A stretch of DNA of 64,000 nucleotides from assembly GCA_045863395.1 (NCBI GenBank), contig BTVJ01000020.1, positions 1 to 64,000 of the forward strand, written 5' to 3'. This DNA comes from Myxococcales bacterium. GTDB lineage: Bacteria; Myxococcota_A; UBA9042; JABWCM01; BTVJ01. This document shows, one piece after another, positions 10,374 to 55,998 of the stretch. Numbering within the stretch: the first letter of the stretch is position 1; each line of letters begins with the position of its first letter. The position numbers and the translations under genes were made by a program. The notes beneath the pieces are model-generated. The model saw only the letters and a program-made list of their open reading frames with translations. It was not told the origin of the DNA and made no database searches.

Positions 10374-10447
10374 TGCGCGACACAGGATTCGAACCTGTGA
10401 CCTACGGCTCCGGAGGCCGTCGCTCTATCCAACTGAGCTAGCCGCGC
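10374..10447 (-). tRNA. tRNA-Arg(CCG); CCA not encoded
   Basis: Cloverleaf GCGCGGC TA GCTC AGTTGGATA GAGC G ACGGC CTCCGGA GCCGT AGGTC ACAGG TTCGAAT CCTGT GTCGCGC A. Confidence 0.97.
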
Positions 10448-46589: not shown

Positions 46590-48698
46590 GTGGCAGACTC
46601 CGACGTCATGACCAGCCACCCGGCACACCTTCGACCGTGCCCCCCAAGCGCTCTGACCGCCGCCAGGCGCCTGTGCGGGTCGGGCACGGACCTGCTGGTC
46701 GCGCTCTTCGTGGCCGCGCTGCTCCCGGGCTGCGGCGACTCTCCGTCGAACACGGTGGGGGACCCTTGCTCTGCGGGCGCCCGGGTCTGCGACGGGCAGA
46801 CCGTGCTCCTGTGCAGCGCCGCCATCTCGACCTTCGTGGTGGAGCGGGAGTGTCCCACCGGCACGATCTGCTCGGCGGGTGAGTGTCGCCCCTCCTTCAC
46901 GGGGAGCGACGAGCTGCCAGACACTGGCGACGCCTCACCGGACCTCCCGGACGCGGGACCTGGCGGCAAGCCCGTGGAGGACGCGGGGGCCACCCAGCCG
47001 CACGATGGTGGCGAGACGGATGGTGCCGGCATGATTGATGGCCTGGCTCCGGCCGACACCGACGCCAACCAGGACGCAGCGACCATGGTGGACACCCCGA
47101 CGCCCATCGACGCACCGCACGTCATGGACACCGCCCCTCTCGACGACGCCACGGAGCCGGACGCCTCAGACGCCCCGGAGGTCGCGGACACGCAGCCCCC
47201 CGACGTCGACCAGCCCATCGACGTGCCGGTCACGCCCGATGCCCAGCCCCCCGACCCCTGCGGCAACGGCAAGCTGGACCCCGGTGAGCTGTGCGATCCC
47301 GCCATCGCGGCTGGCACCGGCGCCTGCCCCACGTCGTGCTACGACCCGCCGGGCTGCGCGATCCTGCTTCTCCAGGGGGACGCCGCCACCTGCAACGCCG
47401 TGTGCGAGAAGGTCCTCGTGTCGGAGCCGATCCCTGGGGACGACTGCTGCCCCGACGGCATGACCGCTGCCATGGACCCGGACTGCGCGGGCGAGTGCGG
47501 CAATGGCAAGAAGGACGGTGACGAGGAGTGCGACGGTGCCGACCTGGGCAACGGCACCTGCGGCACGTTCAGCCCCGCAAAGCCCTCATGCCTCGCGAAC
47601 TGCACGCTCTCGACCCTCCCGTGCCCGGGCACGCACGTGCTCCTGTACGAGAAGGTCAAGAATCTGAAGATCCTGGGTGACCTGTTCAGGGTCCGGTGGC
47701 ACCCCTCCGGCGCCTTCGCCCTGATCCTGGCGGGTGGTGGCGACGTCATCCGCTATGACGCGGACACCGACGAGCTCGTGGTGCTCGGCAACCTGTACGG
47801 TCCTCAGGACCTGGACGTCCACCCATCCGGGGACTACTTCGTCATCGTCGGCGCCGACAAGTCCAAGGTCGGGCACCGGTGGAGGGCCACGGTCGCCGAG
47901 GACCTGACGGTCACGCTCTCGGACGACGGCGTCCTGAGCAACGGGACCCCCGTCGCCGTCGTGTGGTCGGGCTGGAACGACCACTGGATCGCGGGCGCAA
48001 GGAGCGAGTACCCCTACACCAACTGGCTCACCCTCTGGGTGGACGGCGGGCCCCCGAAGCTCAAGGCGTGGTCATCCGGGGCGGGCCTCATCGACCTCAT
48101 GGTCGGGCACCCGTCCGTCTACTTCGGCGAGCCCACCGTGATCACCTCGGAGGGGGTCAACGGCAAGGACAGCAAGGCCTACATCCTGACCGAGGACGCC
48201 CTGCTGTCCTCCGGCATGCCAGCCAGCTTCGGCAACGCCGGGGCCGCGGCGTGGCGGCCCGGCGGCGGCTACGGCCTCGTCGCCGGGTGGTCGGCAGGCA
48301 AGCTCTACGTCCACACGGGATCGGCGTGGACCATGATGGCGCTCCCCAACGGCATCCCCAACGGTGCGGGCCCCAACGGCATCGCGTGGAAGGAGGACGG
48401 CAGCCGCGCCCTGATCGTCGGCAACGCCATCGGAACCTCGCTGCGCGCCATCGTGGTGGACCACCGCCCTGCTGGGAACCCGGCCTTCGACTCGTCGGCG
48501 TTCATCGAGCAGTCGATCAGCGGGTGGAGCAACCCGCCGTACAGCATGACGTCAGACGCGGATCTCCTGGCAGTGGACTGGCGCCCGGGCGAGTGTGACG
48601 AGGGCCTGATCGTCGGCTCGGATCCGGCCACCACCTGGAACCCGACGTTCGGCACGATCATCCGCTTTCGCGACCAGGACGACCCGGACTGCGAGTAG
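46590..48698 (+). CDS. Secreted lipoprotein with myxobacterial Cys-rich repeats and a C-terminal beta-propeller (start uncertain)
   Basis: Lipobox LPGC; Asp/Pro linker; CGNGKLDPGELCD and CGNGKKDGDEECD repeats; WHPSG/WRPG blade motifs. Confidence 0.8.
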   Translation: MADSDVMTSHPAHLRPCPPSALTAARRLCGSGTDLLVALFVAALLPGCGDSPSNTVGDPCSAGARVCDGQTVLLCSAAISTFVVERECPTGTICSAGECRPSFTGSDELPDTGDASPDLPDAGPGGKPVEDAGATQPHDGGETDGAGMIDGLAPADTDANQDAATMVDTPTPIDAPHVMDTAPLDDATEPDASDAPEVADTQPPDVDQPIDVPVTPDAQPPDPCGNGKLDPGELCDPAIAAGTGACPTSCYDPPGCAILLLQGDAATCNAVCEKVLVSEPIPGDDCCPDGMTAAMDPDCAGECGNGKKDGDEECDGADLGNGTCGTFSPAKPSCLANCTLSTLPCPGTHVLLYEKVKNLKILGDLFRVRWHPSGAFALILAGGGDVIRYDADTDELVVLGNLYGPQDLDVHPSGDYFVIVGADKSKVGHRWRATVAEDLTVTLSDDGVLSNGTPVAVVWSGWNDHWIAGARSEYPYTNWLTLWVDGGPPKLKAWSSGAGLIDLMVGHPSVYFGEPTVITSEGVNGKDSKAYILTEDALLSSGMPASFGNAGAAAWRPGGGYGLVAGWSAGKLYVHTGSAWTMMALPNGIPNGAGPNGIAWKEDGSRALIVGNAIGTSLRAIVVDHRPAGNPAFDSSAFIEQSISGWSNPPYSMTSDADLLAVDWRPGECDEGLIVGSDPATTWNPTFGTIIRFRDQDDPDCE

Positions 48699-48740
48699 CG
48701 CCGGGCGGGCCCCCGCCGAGCCGGCACTGGTGGAGGAGCC

Positions 48741-49334
48741 ATGGCCATCCGCGACATCCTGACCGCAGGTCACCCGACCCTGTACGAGCCCACGCGGGAG
48801 CTGGACACTTCGGAGATCACAGCCTCCCGGACCACGCAGCTCATCGCGGATCTGGTGGACACCATGCGCGCGCGGGGGGGCGCCGGCCTCGCGGCGAACC
48901 AGGTGGGGGAGGCGGTCAGGGTCTGCGTCATCGAAGTGCGCGAGCGCAACCCGCGCTATCCGTTTCTTCCGACAATCCCGCTCCGCGTGATGATCAACCC
49001 CCGAATCACGGCGCTCAGTGACGCCCCGCGGCTTCAAAGCTACGAGGGTTGCCTCTCCGTCCCCGGCCTGCGCGGGCTGGTCCTTCGGCACGAGCACATT
49101 CGCGTCGGGTACGTGGACGAGGGGGGCGCAGTCCGAACGCTTCGAGCCCGGGGCACCGCCGCCATCGTGTTCCAGCACGAGGTGGACCACCTGGACGGGC
49201 GCCTCTTCCTGGACCTGGTCACGGACCCCCGCACCCTGGTGACCACCGAGAGCTTCGAGCGCTGGCACCGGGACCCGTGGCTGCTCCGCCTGAGGGCTGC
49301 GGAGATACCTGGTCCCGAGATCATCGACGAGTGA
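48741..49334 (+). CDS. def: Peptide deformylase
   Basis: GAGLAANQ, EGCLS and HEVDH motifs. Confidence 0.96.
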   Translation: MAIRDILTAGHPTLYEPTRELDTSEITASRTTQLIADLVDTMRARGGAGLAANQVGEAVRVCVIEVRERNPRYPFLPTIPLRVMINPRITALSDAPRLQSYEGCLSVPGLRGLVLRHEHIRVGYVDEGGAVRTLRARGTAAIVFQHEVDHLDGRLFLDLVTDPRTLVTTESFERWHRDPWLLRLRAAEIPGPEIIDE

Positions 49335-49424
49335 GCTGCGGTCCGGCTCGTGGGACGACGTACTCGGCCTGCGGCGGAGAGGCGACCCAAGCTGGTGGGT
49401 GGATGGATGAGGCGATCTGAGGAC

Positions 49425-49449
49425 AAAAAAATGTGAGGCGCTGACGACG
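49425..49449 (-). terminator. 3' arm of the closing helix plus U7 tract (putative 3' end of the ncRNA)
   Basis: CGUCGUCAGCGCCUCAC-A-UUUUUUU on the minus strand; long A/T runs are rare in this GC-rich window. Confidence 0.55.
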
Positions 49450-50494
49450 TTCACTGCGGAGGACCCGTTCGCCTCTCCAGAGGACTGAGGTTCGGGCAGG
49501 CGGAGCGTACCGCGTCACCGCGGAGACTCCCAGCTCTCATGAGGTTCGGTTGCCTCTCAGCGTCTTGTATCCGGTCGCCGTAGCGCGCTATTGGTTTGGC
49601 GCTCCCTCTACGCTCTTCGGTCGGCTTTCGCCGCCGCGAACCCTGAGGTATTTCGACGTCCGGGTCGCCCTTCGAGTTCACGAAGGGGTCATCCGCTCAC
49701 AGGCTTTCCGCCTCTTCAGAGCCTTGCGAAGCAGCGCACCGGGCTGACCTTGCGGTAGCTTCTCGGTGTTGCTTCCGATGCTGGGCGAGACCATGCATCG
49801 CTGCTCGTACCCGCCACCCGCTCCCCGGATGGCACCTCTCTTGAGGTTCTCTTCCCCTACAGCGCTATGAGCCAGGAGAGTCCTTTTCTCGCATTCCGTT
49901 GCAGCAATGCCGCTTGGTCCGCGATGACGGAGTTGCCTCCTCCGCCACCTTTCCGCCTTCAGGGTTTCTCACCCTCTTGGCGGCTTTCTCCTCTCTTGGC
50001 CTCGCCGGTCTGTTTCACCCGACAAGCGCTCTTGGGGTTCACGCCCTTCAGAGCTTTTCCCTCCGCGGCAGCCGTATCACCTCGTCGGTGACCTATGCCC
50101 TCATGACGTTCATCGTCGCTCCGTTGCCGGTGCGGCCGCTCGCCTTCAGGGCCTTGCTCTACCTTGGAGTCCGTTGACGGCGCGCCGTGTCTCCACCGCG
50201 TTGCCGTCCCGATGCTCTCTTGGGCTTCACTCCCTCCAGGGACCTCACTCTCTCCGGCGCGGCATCGATTTCGCGACGCCTCCTCTCCCGAGCTTTTCCA
50301 CACTGGCCTTCCGCTGTGGTTTCCCACCCCGGCTCGCCAATGCGACGGCTCCTCAGAGTCTCTGCTTCCGGAGAGCACGGCTTGCCTCTCTCGAGAGCTG
50401 CCGTCCCTCTTGGGATTCTCGGCCTCCAGCTTCGCAAGCGACTGCTGGGTTGGCCCGGGTCACATCCGCTGGCTCGTCACCAGCGCCTCACGGG
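49425..50494 (-). ncRNA. Candidate large (~1.06 kb) modular structured non-coding RNA
   Basis: No credible ORF; sigma54 motif upstream; 17-bp 5'/3' closing helix with two G-U pairs; U7 tract; nine covarying helix/3x3-loop motifs. Confidence 0.8.
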
Positions 50495-50504
50495 AACCAG
50501 TAGT

Positions 50505-50520
50505 TGCAACCCCCAGGCCA
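50505..50520 (-). promoter_or_regulatory. Putative sigma54 -24/-12 promoter of the ncRNA
   Basis: TGGCCTGGGGGTTGCA (GG-N10-GC); predicted +1 near 50494, 3 nt before the 5' helix arm; AT-rich tract upstream. Confidence 0.72.
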
Positions 50521-50826
50521 ACTCGTGCCACAACGAGAATAAATCCACAACCACATGAAAACTCTCGGACAATTCATCAGGACCGGCCCACGGGGGGCCG
50601 CCAGAGACCCTGGCCACGCGACGGTCAGCAATGTGGAACCGACGGAGCCCACTGACGCCTGACCAGCAATAGCGCCGATGCTGTCGCATGCGAAGGAGGG
50701 TGAACATGTCCAGGTTCTGAACACTGCCCCGCCCACTCGCTCCACCTTTCGAAGTGACGCCCGTGGTGTTACACTTCGCCGCCAACGTAGTGGGTGCCGA
50801 TGTTGGCCAGGAGAGCGGAGTTGCTC

Positions 50827-52317
50827 ATGCGCGGGCTGGGTTGGGTGGCAATCGTCGCGGCAGTGTCCTCGGGCTGCTCGGCGACGCTGGAGTTCGAGGA
50901 GTGCTCGCAGGATGCGGACTGCGCGGCCCGCGGGCCCGGCATGGTCTGCTCCACCGAGGGCTTCTGCGTCGACCGCAGCAGCCTGGTCGCAGAGGTCCCA
51001 CTGACCACCGAGGAGTGCAGCGCGGCCTTCGGGCCCGTCAACGAGCCGGGAACCGTCCTGGTCGGCACGCTGCTCCCCACTACGGGCGACAACGCCTCCA
51101 TCGGCGTACCCATGGAGCACGCGGTTCTCCTCGCAATCAAGGAGTTCAATGAGCACGGCGGGCTGACCGGAGGCCGCAAGCTGGCCGTGCTGCTCTGCGA
51201 CACGGGCGGCAGCACGGACAGAGGCGTGAGGGCAGCCAAGCACCTGGTCGCGCTTGGCGTCCCCGGCGCCGTCGGCCCGGCCTTCAGCAGCGTCGCCATC
51301 GAGGTCGCCTCCCGCTTCGCCGCCCCTGGACCCGAGAGCCCGAGCGGCCTCGTGCTGATCAGCCCCTCGGCCACGAGCCCGGCCATCTCGGCACTGAGCG
51401 ACGAGGACCGCGTGTGGCGCACCGTCCCGAGCGACGCGCTCCAGGGCAAGGCGATGGCCCACGTCATCCTCAACAGCGAGAGCTATGGGCTGCCCCCGTT
51501 CGAGCGGGTGACGGTCCTTTATAAAGATGATGCGTACGGCACGGGCCTCCTGACCGCCTTGGTGGAGAGCCTGCCCGGCACTGGGGGGCCGGCGCTGTCC
51601 TCCGTCAAGTACGCGGACCCGACGAAGGAGGTCGTCTACGCCAAGGACCTGCTTCCGAAGCTCGACGAGACGGAGCCGGAGCTGGTCGTGATGATCGGCA
51701 CTGCCGAGACCGCGAAGCTGCTACCCTTCTTCGAGTACGCCTGGCGAAGCCGCCCGACTCCAGTGCGCTGGTTCCTCGCAGACGGCAGCAAGACGGACGC
51801 GCTGTTCACCGAGATCGCGGCGCTGCCTTCCGGGATGGATAAGGCCGGCATCCGGGCCCGCATCCGGGGGACGGCACCGCGGGCGGGGAGCGGCAAGCAC
51901 TTCAACGCCTTCAAAGCGCGGCTGGGGGGGGAGTTCGGGTACCCGGAGCCCCCCGTGTACGCCGCGCAGGCCTATGACGCCACCTACATGCTCGCGCTGG
52001 CGTTGGGCGCGAGCACCCGGTCCTACCCGGACTCGGGCGAGATCGTTGCGGGCCTCCGCAGGCTCACGGGAGGAGCGGAGGTCATCCCGGCGACCCCGTC
52101 GAGCATCACCAAGGGGATCCAGCTCCTCCGGTCAGCTCCCGACGCCAGGATCGACTTCGACGGGGCATCGGGCTCCCTCGACTTCGGCGCCGACGGGGAG
52201 GCGCCGGGCCCCATCGATCTGTGGGCGCCCCACGACGGCGCCTTCGTGGCCTGCGGCCTGCTGGACGAGGGCGCGGCTCCGGTCGATCCGTCGGCGGCCG
52301 GCTGCGACGCGCTGTAG
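50827..52317 (+). CDS. ABC-type (branched-chain amino acid family) substrate-binding lipoprotein with N-terminal Cys-rich module
   Basis: Lipobox SSGC; GGLTGGRKL, GPAFSS, ISPSATSP, RTVPSDALQG, DAYG, AYDA, GASGSLDF. Confidence 0.88.
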   Translation: MRGLGWVAIVAAVSSGCSATLEFEECSQDADCAARGPGMVCSTEGFCVDRSSLVAEVPLTTEECSAAFGPVNEPGTVLVGTLLPTTGDNASIGVPMEHAVLLAIKEFNEHGGLTGGRKLAVLLCDTGGSTDRGVRAAKHLVALGVPGAVGPAFSSVAIEVASRFAAPGPESPSGLVLISPSATSPAISALSDEDRVWRTVPSDALQGKAMAHVILNSESYGLPPFERVTVLYKDDAYGTGLLTALVESLPGTGGPALSSVKYADPTKEVVYAKDLLPKLDETEPELVVMIGTAETAKLLPFFEYAWRSRPTPVRWFLADGSKTDALFTEIAALPSGMDKAGIRARIRGTAPRAGSGKHFNAFKARLGGEFGYPEPPVYAAQAYDATYMLALALGASTRSYPDSGEIVAGLRRLTGGAEVIPATPSSITKGIQLLRSAPDARIDFDGASGSLDFGADGEAPGPIDLWAPHDGAFVACGLLDEGAAPVDPSAAGCDAL

Positions 52318-52324
52318 GGGCTCG

Positions 52325-55015
52325 ATGGCGCTCTTCGAGACCGAGGAGCCGGCGGCCCTCCCCTTCACCCTGGACCTCAGCGCCGCCGGACTGCGCGTTC
52401 GCCTCGCAGGCCTGCGCTCGGGCCCACTGAAGGTGATCGAGCTCGCCATGGAGGCTCCGCCTGGCCTCCAGCCGCTTCCGCCGGAGCGGCCCACTGACGT
52501 GGCCCGCGCGCTGCGCAACCGGCTGCTCTCCCTGGCGGTGGAGGTCGACGAGGAGGACCTTGCGGGCACGCTTCGTCCGCACGGTGTGTCCGCTCGCCTC
52601 CGGGCAGACGGCGCGCGGCTGACCTGGACGACAGGGGGGGTACGCGTCACCGCACGCGCCCACGTGCTCCCCGACACGGCGTCGCTCCCGACGGGCCCGG
52701 GACTGGCGCTCTCCATCGACGACGTGCGGGTGTATGGCTTCGTACCTGCTCCGTGGCCCCGCGCCGTGGGCGCAATGACGGACCGACTGCCGGAGTGGCT
52801 GGCGCCTCGCTCCAGCCGCACGGGCACCACCCTCGTCGCCGTCGACGTGGTCCGCGCAGCCCTCCGTGACATCCTGCCCGGCGCAGGCTGGAAGCTTCCA
52901 GACTCGTCGAGCGCAACCATACAGGCGCTGGCTCACGCCGAGGGGAGGGTGTCGGTGAGGCTCGGGACCGAGTCCCCTGAGCGACCCGCGCCCGCGCTCC
53001 CGGACGAGGATCGCGCCCATCAGGAGGCCGCCGCGCGCCTTCGTCTGAAGCGCGCCCACGGCGACCTCGAGGCGACCATGGCGACGGGCGACACCACCCG
53101 CTCTCTGGCGTTGCTGAGGCGCTGGCTAGAGACCGGCACCGGCGATGCCCACGTCCAGGGGCGATTTCTCGAGGTCGCCTTGGCGGAGCCCCTGCTGCAC
53201 GGGCAGTGCGCGGCCACCGCCCGGGCGCGCATCGCGCTGGACCCGGACGACACCCTGGCCCACTGCGCGTTGCTCGCCATCGGGGAGCACGCCGGGGACC
53301 TGGAGATGGCGATGACGTCCGCAAGCCGACTCGCAGACATCGCGGACGGGGCGGGCGAGCCCTTCGACCTGATCGCGGCGGCCACCACACTTGCACGCCT
53401 GGGCGGAACGGGGGGGACCGCGGCCGTCGAGGGGGCACTGCGGCGGGCAGCGAGCCGGTGCCCGGACGAGCCCTCCCTCCTCCGCGACCTGGCGAGTGCA
53501 GCCCGCTCAGCAGGATTGGGGGACGTCGTGCGAGGACTTCGCCAGCGACTGCTGCTCACGGACCTGCGCGACGACGATGCCGCGGCAGTCGCAACCGAGC
53601 TCGCCCGCGACGCCCTGTCCGAGGGGGACCTCGCGAGCGCCCGTGTGTACGTGGACTTCGCGTTGCGGCGAGCGCCCGACGCCGTCACGGTCCTCGAGCT
53701 GGCGGCGGACGCAGCGAGGCTCCGGGGGGATGCGGCTGTGCGGCGGGACGCGTTGATGCGCCTCGCGTCTCCAGAGGTAGCCGCCAACGAGCCGGGTGTC
53801 GCGCTGCGGGCAATGAGAGCCTTGGCGCAGGAGCTGCCTCCGACCGAGGGGGTCGCGCTTGCCCGCAGGGCCCGTGCGCTCGCTCCCACGGACACGGAGA
53901 GCCAGGTCGCGCTGGCGGAGGCATACGAGCGCGCGGGAGACGTGCCCGCGGCCTTCGCCGAGTGGAGGGCCCTGGCCGCATCGGGCGACGCAGGGCTGGA
54001 GGGCCGCGCGGCGGCCCACCTCGCCGCGCTTGCGACGGCGGCGCCCTCCCTGCGACACGCGGCGCGGCTGCACGTAGCGCAAGTCGTCGCCCAGCGCCCA
54101 TCCCAGGCGGAGGCGCTCGATGCCCTCGCGCTCCTCGCGGACGACACGGCGAGCTGGGACGAGGTGCTCGGCGCATACGAGCGGGCCGCGCGGGCAGCAG
54201 AGCGTGGGCCGCTCGCAGCCCACTTCGAGCTCTTGATCGGGCTGGTACAGGAGGACCGGCTGGGCCTCACGCACGACGCGATGGATGCCTTCGAGCGTGC
54301 TCTCGACGCCGACCCGGAGGGCACCGGGGCCGCCACCGCCAGAGAGCGCCTCGCCCGTCTCTACGAACAGCTCGGCCGCTGGGATCGCCTGAGCGACCTC
54401 CTGCGCCGCACGGCCCGAGAGTCGGAGTCCGTACCGGACCAGGTCGGCGCGAAGCTGCGCCTGGCCGCGCTCTGCATGGGTCCGCTGGGACGACGCTCCG
54501 AGGCAGTGGCGATCCTGCGCGAGCTCCTGGAGGAGCGTCCGCGCGATCTCCCGGTGCTGCGGGCTGCGGCCGGACTCCTTCGAGACCCGTGCAGCGCCGC
54601 CGATGTGGACCTGAGGACCCGCGTGCTGCTGCGGCTCGCTGCACTGGCGCCGGCCCCCGAAGGGCATGAGGCCGCGGCGGAGGCCGCCAGCGTCCTGGCT
54701 GGCGTCGGCCGCCAGATCGAGGCACGGGCCGTCCTGGTCCAGGCAGGTCTGGACCACCTGCGGGTCCAGGAGTCGGTCCGGCACATCGGCACCTCGCGGC
54801 CCGAGGCCACCGATGCCCCCCATGACACCCGCGCAGCGTCCGACGCAGCAGCCGCTGGCGATCTCGAGCGCGCACTGAGCCTGCTCGCGCCCCACGTTCT
54901 GTGTGAACGCCCGGATTCCGAAGCGGCCGCCCTCCTGTGCGAGCTCCTGGAAGCCACTGGCAGGGTCGATGACCTGGCCGCCGTGGAGGCTCACCTCCGC
55001 GCAGCCGGAGCTTGA
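52325..55015 (+). CDS. Large TPR-like helical repeat protein
   Basis: Ala/Leu-rich TPR-like units (AFERALDADP, RLARLYEQLGRW). Confidence 0.7.
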   Translation: MALFETEEPAALPFTLDLSAAGLRVRLAGLRSGPLKVIELAMEAPPGLQPLPPERPTDVARALRNRLLSLAVEVDEEDLAGTLRPHGVSARLRADGARLTWTTGGVRVTARAHVLPDTASLPTGPGLALSIDDVRVYGFVPAPWPRAVGAMTDRLPEWLAPRSSRTGTTLVAVDVVRAALRDILPGAGWKLPDSSSATIQALAHAEGRVSVRLGTESPERPAPALPDEDRAHQEAAARLRLKRAHGDLEATMATGDTTRSLALLRRWLETGTGDAHVQGRFLEVALAEPLLHGQCAATARARIALDPDDTLAHCALLAIGEHAGDLEMAMTSASRLADIADGAGEPFDLIAAATTLARLGGTGGTAAVEGALRRAASRCPDEPSLLRDLASAARSAGLGDVVRGLRQRLLLTDLRDDDAAAVATELARDALSEGDLASARVYVDFALRRAPDAVTVLELAADAARLRGDAAVRRDALMRLASPEVAANEPGVALRAMRALAQELPPTEGVALARRARALAPTDTESQVALAEAYERAGDVPAAFAEWRALAASGDAGLEGRAAAHLAALATAAPSLRHAARLHVAQVVAQRPSQAEALDALALLADDTASWDEVLGAYERAARAAERGPLAAHFELLIGLVQEDRLGLTHDAMDAFERALDADPEGTGAATARERLARLYEQLGRWDRLSDLLRRTARESESVPDQVGAKLRLAALCMGPLGRRSEAVAILRELLEERPRDLPVLRAAAGLLRDPCSAADVDLRTRVLLRLAALAPAPEGHEAAAEAASVLAGVGRQIEARAVLVQAGLDHLRVQESVRHIGTSRPEATDAPHDTRAASDAAAAGDLERALSLLAPHVLCERPDSEAAALLCELLEATGRVDDLAAVEAHLRAAGA

Positions 55016-55158: not shown

Positions 55159-55998
55159 ATGGCACTCGACGACACGTGGTACACAGAGCAATGGGCTGGC
55201 GAGGGCTCGGCGATCTCGCTGCAGATCGAGCGCAAGCTCCATGACGAGCAGTCCTCGTTCCAGCGAATCGAGATCTACGAGACAAAGACCTTCGGGCGCC
55301 TGATGACCCTGGACGGGCTCGTCATGGTCACCGACCGCGACAACTTCGTCTATCACGAGATGCTGAGCCACCCGGCGCTCCACTGCCACCCGGACCCGCG
55401 AGACGTCCTGATCATCGGCGGCGGGGACTGCGGCACCCTGCGCGAGGTGCTCAAGCACGAGTCCGTTCGGCTCGCGGTCCAGGCCGAGATCGACGAGCGC
55501 GTCACGCGCGTCTCGGAGCTGTACTTCCCCCAGCTCTGCGAGTCCAACGGGGACCCCCGCGCGGAGCTCCGCTTCGTCGACGGGATCCGATGGGTCGCGG
55601 CCGCGGCGCCGGGCACCTACGACGTGATCATCGTGGACAGCACCGACCCCGTGGGCCCCGCGGAGGGCCTCTTCACGGAGGCCTTCTACGCGGACTGCCA
55701 TCGGGCCCTCCGCCCTGGCGGCGTCGTGGTGGGCCAGAGCGAGTCGCCCCTCTTCCACCTCCCCATCTTGCGATCCCTCCACGAGACCATGCGGGGCGCG
55801 GGCTTTGCCGATGTGCGGACCCTCACGTTCCCCCAGTGCACCTACCCGTCCGGGTGGTGGTCCGTCACGCTTGCCGGGCGGGACGCGCCTCTGGAGCGGC
55901 GCCGCCCCGTGTCCGTCGACACGCGCTACTACACGCCCGCCATCCACGACGCGGCCGGCGTCCTCCCCGCCTTCGTGCAGCGGGCTCTGGTGCCCTGA
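55159..55998 (+). CDS. speE: Spermidine synthase (polyamine aminopropyltransferase)
   Basis: YHEMLSH, VLIIGGGDCG, EID, DVIIVDSTDPVGP, TYPSGWW. Confidence 0.96.
   Translation: MALDDTWYTEQWAGEGSAISLQIERKLHDEQSSFQRIEIYETKTFGRLMTLDGLVMVTDRDNFVYHEMLSHPALHCHPDPRDVLIIGGGDCGTLREVLKHESVRLAVQAEIDERVTRVSELYFPQLCESNGDPRAELRFVDGIRWVAAAAPGTYDVIIVDSTDPVGPAEGLFTEAFYADCHRALRPGGVVVGQSESPLFHLPILRSLHETMRGAGFADVRTLTFPQCTYPSGWWSVTLAGRDAPLERRRPVSVDTRYYTPAIHDAAGVLPAFVQRALVP

Follow-up and report, generated by a model that had tools for sequence, protein, structure and literature searches.

Background

To our knowledge, very few bacterial RNAs of great size and complexity are known beyond ribosomal RNA (rRNA), RNase P RNA, introns and a handful of "ornate" RNAs, and each of the known ones has revealed unexpected biology. 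In RNase P RNA and in the central wheel of group II introns, large helical domains are arranged around a junction, while rRNA precursors possess processing stems which are cleaved by RNase III. The ornate RNAs OLE, ROOL and GOLLD are hosted by Bacillota, Lactobacillales, rumen organisms and phages, and phages, prophages and the neighbourhood of tRNA genes are frequent locations of GOLLD and ROOL. Here we report on the gene of a structured non-coding RNA that is about 1.05 kb long, stable, abundant and trans-acting. The gene lies on the minus strand at positions 49425-50520 of a 64,000-nucleotide stretch of a Myxococcales genome (positions 1 to 64,000 of contig BTVJ01000020.1, assembly GCA_045863395.1; hereafter "the window"), between the peptide deformylase gene def and a gene for a binding protein.

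OLE, ROOL and GOLLD are described in a preprint as large ornate RNAs which assemble with copies of themselves (bioRxiv 10.1101/2024.12.08.627333). The RNA reported here resembles them in being a stand-alone non-coding gene of several hundred to about a thousand nucleotides with an elaborate structure supported by covariation, and by analogy it may likewise form higher-order assemblies. It differs from them in its greater length, in the lack of any covariance-model match, in its Myxococcota- and Planctomycetota-labelled hosts and in the lack of matches in phage and plasmid records. Four arms that share one repeated closing module are not among the features given for OLE, ROOL and GOLLD in the part of that preprint consulted. 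A literature search, outside which most subscription journals and supplements lay, found no description of such an RNA. Within the limits of that search and of Rfam, this large bacterial RNA represents a new class, and no description of its architecture is known, although an earlier report is possible.

Results and discussion

Anatomy of the gene

The initial annotation of the window had recognised on the minus strand a -24/-12 motif, a 17-bp helix between distant strands and a tail of A plus seven T, and all of these are present where it placed them. The sigma-54-type -24/-12 promoter motif occupies positions 50505-50520. The 5' arm of the closing helix P1 (50475-50491) starts 13 bases beyond this motif and pairs with a 3' arm at 49433-49449, which is directly followed by an A plus U7 tract (49425-49432), a likely termination signal. 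From the usual promoter spacing, transcription is predicted to start near 50494. The 17 positions of P1 comprise 15 Watson-Crick and two G·U pairs (50480·49444 and 50479·49445), so that the arms are 88% complementary as DNA. Read on the plus strand, both of the latter become A·C mismatches, which supports pairing in a minus-strand RNA. In ungapped helix scoring, the score of P1 was reached by none of 100 and by none of 200 shuffles, and P1 is retained in the minimum-free-energy fold of the whole element. Within the element the G+C content is lowered to 0.61-0.65, compared with about 0.70 outside it, and a strong purine excess marks the minus strand over 49500-50450. This purine skew, together with the upstream promoters and downstream terminators of the homologues described below, likewise points to the minus strand.

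Other family members have a closing helix at the corresponding position, formed by different sequences, which supports the helix as initially proposed. Of 40 elements, 26 have both ends inside the locus. In wide windows the closing helix is the best ungapped helix beyond shuffles in nine of these 26 loci. Narrow windows raised the number to 13 of 26, which becomes 12 of 25 after removal of L044, an artefact of a truncated locus; shorter closing helices are visible by eye in further loci. RNAduplex applied across wide end windows did not discriminate closing helices, and ungapped helix scoring was used instead.

The genome encodes rpoN (sigma-54). The -24/-12 motif type of the window occurs at the same distance in L002, L009, L017 and L019, and the GC of the -12 element was read by eye 12-14 nt before the 5' arm in five loci (L001, L002, L009, L017 and L019). 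In at least ten other homologous loci the corresponding position is occupied by a good sigma-70-type -35/-10 pair (likewise read by eye). The minus strand of the present locus yielded neither a sigma-70-like promoter nor a local hairpin terminator. We infer that in this lineage the RNA is transcribed from a sigma-54-type promoter. In most homologues the 3' arm is followed by a separate G+C-rich hairpin and a U-run, as far as can be read by eye. A U-run directly after the closing helix is found in L001, L002, L003 and L006, with eight to ten U in L002, L003 and L006. The position of the U-tract directly after the 3' arm suggests that P1 itself acts as terminator stem. The primary transcript would thus start near 50494 and terminate in the U-tract on its own closing helix.

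Expression and transcript ends

The stretch occurs in 20 public runs, 15 of them recorded as RNA; the studies, 14 in number, concern metatranscriptomes of sludge, wastewater and aquatic habitats. Four runs from four independent studies were compared over 48700-51300, using assembled contigs only. Run X5 has a contig at 49433-50480 with a depth of 7.6, and X6 one at 49441-50479 with a depth of 513.5; in both the flanks have a depth of 0. In X8 the contig spans 49437-50480 with a depth of 541.5, and the flanks do not exceed 3.2. Two contigs of X1 cover the element (49515-50473, depth 3670, and 49457-49544, depth 3403), and the depth of the flanks is 112.8 over 49121-49486 and about 3 beyond 51156. 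This contrast between element and flanks argues against carry-over of DNA, and it supports the proposal that the locus produces a single stable RNA of about 1 kb. In wastewater metatranscriptomes the RNA ranks among the organism's most abundant transcripts. Other contigs, with depths of 1430-1726, match only 49951-49991, the most conserved core, and then diverge, which indicates that the versions of the RNA in relatives are abundant as well.

The abundant species extends over 49433-50480, the minus strand being assigned from the features above. Contigs from three studies end at 50479/50480. The letters beyond the contig ends in X6 (both ends) and X8 (one end) are presumably sequencing adapter, and a contig that runs straight into adapter letters suggests a real molecular end. 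These ends fall inside the closing helix: position 50480 pairs with 49444, and the other ends lie at 49433-49441. An extent of about 50494-49430 had been predicted; a transcript of about 1 kb is indeed found, but its abundant form seems to begin at about 50480, inside P1. The location of its ends within P1 suggests that the primary transcript is trimmed or cleaved inside the closing helix. The RNA is similar in this respect to rRNA precursors, in which the 5' and 3' flanks likewise form a helix, here of strands about 1 kb apart, with the ends of the abundant species inside it. Unlike rRNA precursors, it has no rRNA homology, and its processing is read from contig ends alone.

Two minor observations concern the same contigs. 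The X1 contig with a depth of 112.8 (49121-49486) starts within the 3' part of def, crosses the U/A-tract and reaches the 3' end of the RNA. The def transcript may read into the terminator region of the RNA, and the terminator could act in both directions. At window position 50341, the RNA contigs of X6 and X8, and not those of X1 or X5, show a T-to-C difference (plus strand), which is most likely a strain variant.

Non-coding status and comparison with known families

The locus had been annotated as free of protein-like open reading frames (ORFs). Stop-free frames of 92-163 amino acids (aa) do exist on both strands, and a second count gave lengths of up to 166 aa in sense and 191 aa in antisense direction, so that this description holds only in a restricted sense: no ORF inside the element belongs to a Pfam family, and none is conserved among the homologues. 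The longest stop-free frames vary in place and frame among the 40 homologues. Seven pairwise alignments contain 112 indels, of which 99 have lengths not divisible by three, and the substitutions fall evenly on the three codon positions. As judged from these indel and codon tests and from the covariation reported below, a check proposed with the initial annotation, the homologues conserve base pairing and not a reading frame.

The stop-free frames and the position of the element between two genes might be taken as signs of a decayed protein gene, or of a leader acting in cis on def or the binding-protein gene. We give this interpretation hardly any credence. Both neighbouring genes are located on the other strand and the element has its own promoter and terminator. 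The frame-breaking indels, the lack of codon periodicity and the lack of Pfam matches contradict a protein gene. A riboswitch or other cis-regulatory leader is in conflict with the plus-strand orientation of both genes and with the variation of neighbours among loci, and the strong covariation and a transcript confined to the element speak against either version. Compensatory pairing, the lack of a coding signal and a discrete transcript (as seen in contigs) are instead what a large structured non-coding RNA in general displays, and the locus almost certainly belongs to a real structured RNA family.

Comparison with Rfam 15 confirmed that this family is not a known one. At gathering thresholds, the sole match in the whole window is a tRNA at 10374-10447. 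With E values up to 10, only two insignificant plus-strand matches (E 1.5 and 8.7) were obtained over 49300-50800, and none of 20 homologue loci yielded a match. In particular, the element does not reach the gathering threshold of GOLLD, ROOL, OLE, HEARO, raiA or any other Rfam 15 family. The RNase P RNA and the 6S RNA of the genome are located elsewhere (on C58 with 237.1 bits and on C14 with 61.5 bits, both above threshold), and the covariance models of these two RNAs do not match the element.

Distribution in bacterial genomes

A blastn-type search produced patchy matches in 12 of 61 relatives. With nhmmer the matches proved to be full-length: L002 aligned over model positions 62-1141, which is the whole 1.08 kb, and at least 14 further loci aligned across most of their length. 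A covariance model (R1) was built from a 16-sequence alignment of element positions 489-650. Among 107 genomes of the class to which the window belongs, 54 contained the family, with one to four R1 matches each. In the sample of the phylum, R1 matched 34 of 151 genomes, 19 of them outside the class, with up to six matches each. Multi-domain nhmmer matches confirmed 14 of 15 loci fetched from this sample; a weak R1 match in G118 was not confirmed.

Outside the phylum, R1 matched 23 of 151 genomes in the sample of Planctomycetota (the phylum of G231, Tepidisphaeraceae), with E values down to 5e-34, and three loci fetched from it are full length and align over up to model positions 73-994. Two of 151 genomes matched in the Verrucomicrobiota sample (the phylum of G232, Opitutaceae), one of them strongly (1.8e-23). 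The sample of Pseudomonadota (the phylum of G230, Thermithiobacillus) contained no real match; the single R1 match among its 151 genomes, in G260 (L134, G260:C66:85596-88721), was a false positive, being no homologue and instead a long coding, acidic tandem repeat rich in Glu, Ser and Leu codons. Since these counts are from samples and R1 was trained on one class, absences are weak evidence. Judging from the sequence matches, the family is present in the phylum of the window (Myxococcota), in genomes labelled as Planctomycetota and in at least one labelled as Verrucomicrobiota. Its range thus extends far beyond a single lineage, to two or more phyla of complex bacteria with large genomes. One copy resides in a complete single-contig genome of 9.29 Mb (G045), at about 4,377,900-4,379,100, for which a cultured host may be available for genetics. 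In a separate case (L071 in G233) a record titled "Bacteroidota bacterium" was grouped in the same phylum sample as the Thermithiobacillus genome, so that label and grouping disagree.

The flanks of 35 loci were examined and comprise 118 ORF fragments. A neighbour of TolB type is found in eight of the 35 loci, in both orientations, and one of QueG type in two. The remaining neighbours in these loci are unrelated and include glutamine synthetase, acyl-CoA dehydrogenase, Dus and LysR, among others. Such varied neighbours fit a trans-acting RNA gene. The genome of the window itself harbours a second, diverged copy (locus L015, G000:C117:632-791, minus strand; 131.9 bits with R1), which shares with the window copy just one blastn match of 107 bases at 72% identity. 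This copy adjoins a gene for an outer-membrane efflux protein, and no clear sigma-54 motif was seen upstream of it.

The occurrence of one to six copies per genome, the variable genomic contexts and the large insertions carried by some copies in one arm (D4, see below) raise the question whether the RNA is part of a mobile or phage-derived element, as are many ROOL and GOLLD copies. We regard this as very unlikely. Neither the 50,697 phage records nor the 72,556 plasmid records searched by distant blastn contained a match, and no integrase, transposase or reverse transcriptase, nor any phage-type gene, occurs among the 118 flanking ORF fragments of the 35 loci, so that a location of the GOLLD or ROOL kind is not observed. 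The copies within a genome are old paralogues, as illustrated by the divergence of the second copy, and the largest of the D4 insertions, that of L020, has no Pfam family.

Secondary structure

The fold is very probably composed of four arms of about 180-370 nt, which radiate from a junction and are each closed by a copy of the same helical module; this model derives from comparison of the homologous sequences. The pair counts for the arm-closing helices are from a profile hidden Markov model (HMM) alignment of 40 elements, prepared after the removal of thirteen duplicate loci, and all structural positions refer to the minus strand. In the central domain, which belongs to arm D3, 97.9% of the cells are paired, 15 of 18 pairs are compensatory and none of 500 shuffles reached this result, while slid controls remain at 32-49%. 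Two further segments were analysed with MAFFT and RNAalifold after dropping sequences outside 0.7-1.35 times the median length, which left 26 and 35 sequences. They are paired to 86.2% and 88.5%, with 172 and 148 double-change cells; slid controls gave 31-54. The same segment analysis yielded just six pairs for element positions 640-850, and a covariation scan of the HMM alignment from sequence only recovered few helices. In an out-of-sample test on 18 sequences from other classes and phyla, which had not been used to derive the pairs, 87-100% were paired versus 35-69% in slid controls, the exception being arm D1 in the other classes of the phylum (see below).

The arms are connected with a direct repeat of 26 nt, which recurs in the element with a spacing of about 189 nt; with filters off, R1 likewise gives a tandem series of weak matches on the same strand of the element. 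Each arm is closed by pairing between the 3' half of one repeat and the 5' half of the repeat that follows it. Local hairpins formed by the individual repeats were considered and rejected, as they are paired in only 54.7-77.7% compared to 89.5-97.2% for the arm-closing helices; wrong-partner controls for the latter range from 54.7 to 79.0%. The G·U pairs that are frequent in the arm-closing helices fit the minus strand only.

Arm D1 (50232-50414) is closed by the pairing of 50414-50404 with 50242-50232, which is 89.5% paired with 47 double changes, and contains an inner module (50358-50348 with 50293-50283; 84.2% paired). Arm D2 (50044-50224) is closed by 50224-50214 with 50054-50044 (96.4%, 53 double changes), its inner module being 50151-50141 with 50108-50098 (90.8%). 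In D3 (49855-50036) the closing module, 50036-50026 with 49865-49855, is 96.3% paired with 38 double changes. Its inner module (49983-49953) is 100% paired and forms the most conserved stretch of the RNA, and a hairpin with a conserved 10-nt loop is located at 50023-50004. The longest arm, D4 (49473-49845), is closed by 49845-49835 with 49483-49473 (97.2%, 43 double changes) and has its inner module at 49703-49694 with 49562-49553 (97.5%). The consensus lines show junction linkers at 50415-50422 (J1), 50231-50225 (J2), 50043-50037 (J3) and 49854-49846 (J4); these are 7-9 nt long, contain GAA and have a conserved purine core. Before the first arm, a small 5' hairpin, D0 (50426-50448), is predicted by single-sequence folding.

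Some homologues carry large insertions of 0.3-1.3 kb in arm D4. The largest, of 1.3 kb, is found in L020 (G012:C4, locus positions about 155-1452); it is not purine-rich and contains an open frame of 305 aa, for which no Pfam family was found. Smaller insertions occur at the same place of D4 in L012, L014, L028, L036 and L037.

The module that closes each arm and recurs once inside each arm, giving eight supported copies per RNA, consists of a 3-bp helix, a 3x3 internal loop with A-N-G opposite G-N-A, and a second helix of 4-5 bp. The outer loop bases that face each other covary as homopurine pairs. At one position A·A is found in 213, G·G in 49 and a mixed combination in 16 cases, and the same loop position in arm D3 has 20 A·A, 19 G·G and no mixed combination. 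At the other outer position G·G (264) prevails over A·A (9). A repeated internal loop with such A·A to G·G covariation may represent a new recurrent RNA motif. The regularity and modularity of the fold invite structural work.

Possible functions

The size of the RNA, its multi-domain covarying structure and the arms around a central junction, reminiscent of the group II intron central wheel, make it conceivable that the fold builds the active site of a large ribozyme, as in RNase P or group II introns. With these RNAs it shares several large helical domains, short linkers, a long-range closing helix and GNRA-like loops, and several of its conserved loops and linkers could make tertiary contacts. 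However, it matches no Rfam intron or ribozyme model, no Pfam family was detected in the element or in an insertion, it has no intron ORF, and it possesses its own promoter and terminator instead of an exon context. In addition, the RNA accumulates at full length, no candidate substrate is known, and a module that occurs eight times is what one would sooner expect of a scaffold than of a single active site. We consequently judge a ribozyme to be improbable, and assignment to group I or group II introns is contradicted by the same observations.

Instead, the presence of eight copies of one module, which bear load in a closed fold, favours a multivalent scaffold, a function which we propose tentatively, by analogy, and with less than even confidence. 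The eight modules would serve as repeated docking sites, through which the RNA would either capture a protein in multiple copies or self-assemble in the manner of OLE, ROOL and GOLLD.

The same eight copies, together with the high abundance of the RNA, could alternatively serve protein titration in the manner of 6S or CsrB RNA, the modules sequestering a global RNA-binding protein under sigma-54-inducing conditions. As with 6S and CsrB/RsmZ-type RNAs, we are dealing with an abundant, trans-acting RNA with its own promoter, and a repeated motif is likewise known from the CsrB type. The paralogues differ in their condition-specific promoter type, and a weak hint of nitrogen control is given by the closest homologue, which is located just downstream of a glutamine synthetase gene, and by the window copy, which is divergent from a gene for an amino-acid-type binding protein. 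The present RNA is, however, three to eight times larger than 6S and CsrB/RsmZ-type RNAs, and its multi-arm fold is closed. In known sponges, which are loosely structured RNAs, the sites are displayed in exposed hairpin loops, whereas the motif here is an internal loop inside helices, which bears load in a covarying fold. Moreover, no candidate protein co-occurs nearby. Titration thus appears unlikely, if somewhat less so than catalysis.

Taken jointly, a new RNA family with a four-arm fold, end processing, a sigma-54 promoter and a scaffold function is the explanation we prefer, and we hold it with moderate confidence. Several findings weigh against it. The transcript evidence is composed not of raw reads but of contigs, which cannot prove the strand, the exact ends or the processing. 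The sigma-54 motif alone is not rare in the window (five matches versus 2.55 expected), and it is informative because of its conserved position in five homologous loci rather than because of rarity. The closing helix is individually beyond shuffles in only the 12 of 25 valid loci mentioned above. In the other classes of the phylum the pairs of arm D1 hold poorly (56.5% of only 23 cells), and a proposed ninth module in D4 (49722-49711 with 49544-49533) is only 61.9% paired and thus unsupported. The phylum names are taken from record labels, and contigs misplaced among metagenome-assembled genomes could inflate the claim of a distribution across phyla. Finally, no conserved protein partner was found, and the neighbours differ among the 35 loci.

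A bolder version of the scaffold reading is correspondingly more doubtful. It would see in the RNA a new giant class common to Myxococcota and Planctomycetota, whose four paralogous arms arose by internal duplication and whose modules drive assembly into a large particle, either of RNA only or ribonucleoprotein. The transcript would terminate on its closing helix and be trimmed inside it like rRNA precursors, with sigma-54 control in some lineages.

Neighbouring genes

The element is convergent with one of its neighbouring genes and divergent from the other. The peptide deformylase gene def is located at 48741-49334 and the gene for the periplasmic binding protein, of the Peripla_BP_6/ANF_receptor type, at 50794-52317, both on the plus strand. 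Upstream of def, an ORF of 702 aa (46590-48698, plus strand) has no Pfam family. An ORF of 1013 aa (51974-55015, plus strand), which overlaps the end of the binding-protein gene, has weak TPR matches only. Farther along the window follows a spermidine synthase gene (55159-55998, plus strand), whose best relatives in a collection of species genomes, with 57-70% identity, are found in Gammaproteobacteria-labelled genomes (Sulfuricaulis, Acidiferrobacterales and others); judged by these relatives, it may have been acquired horizontally.

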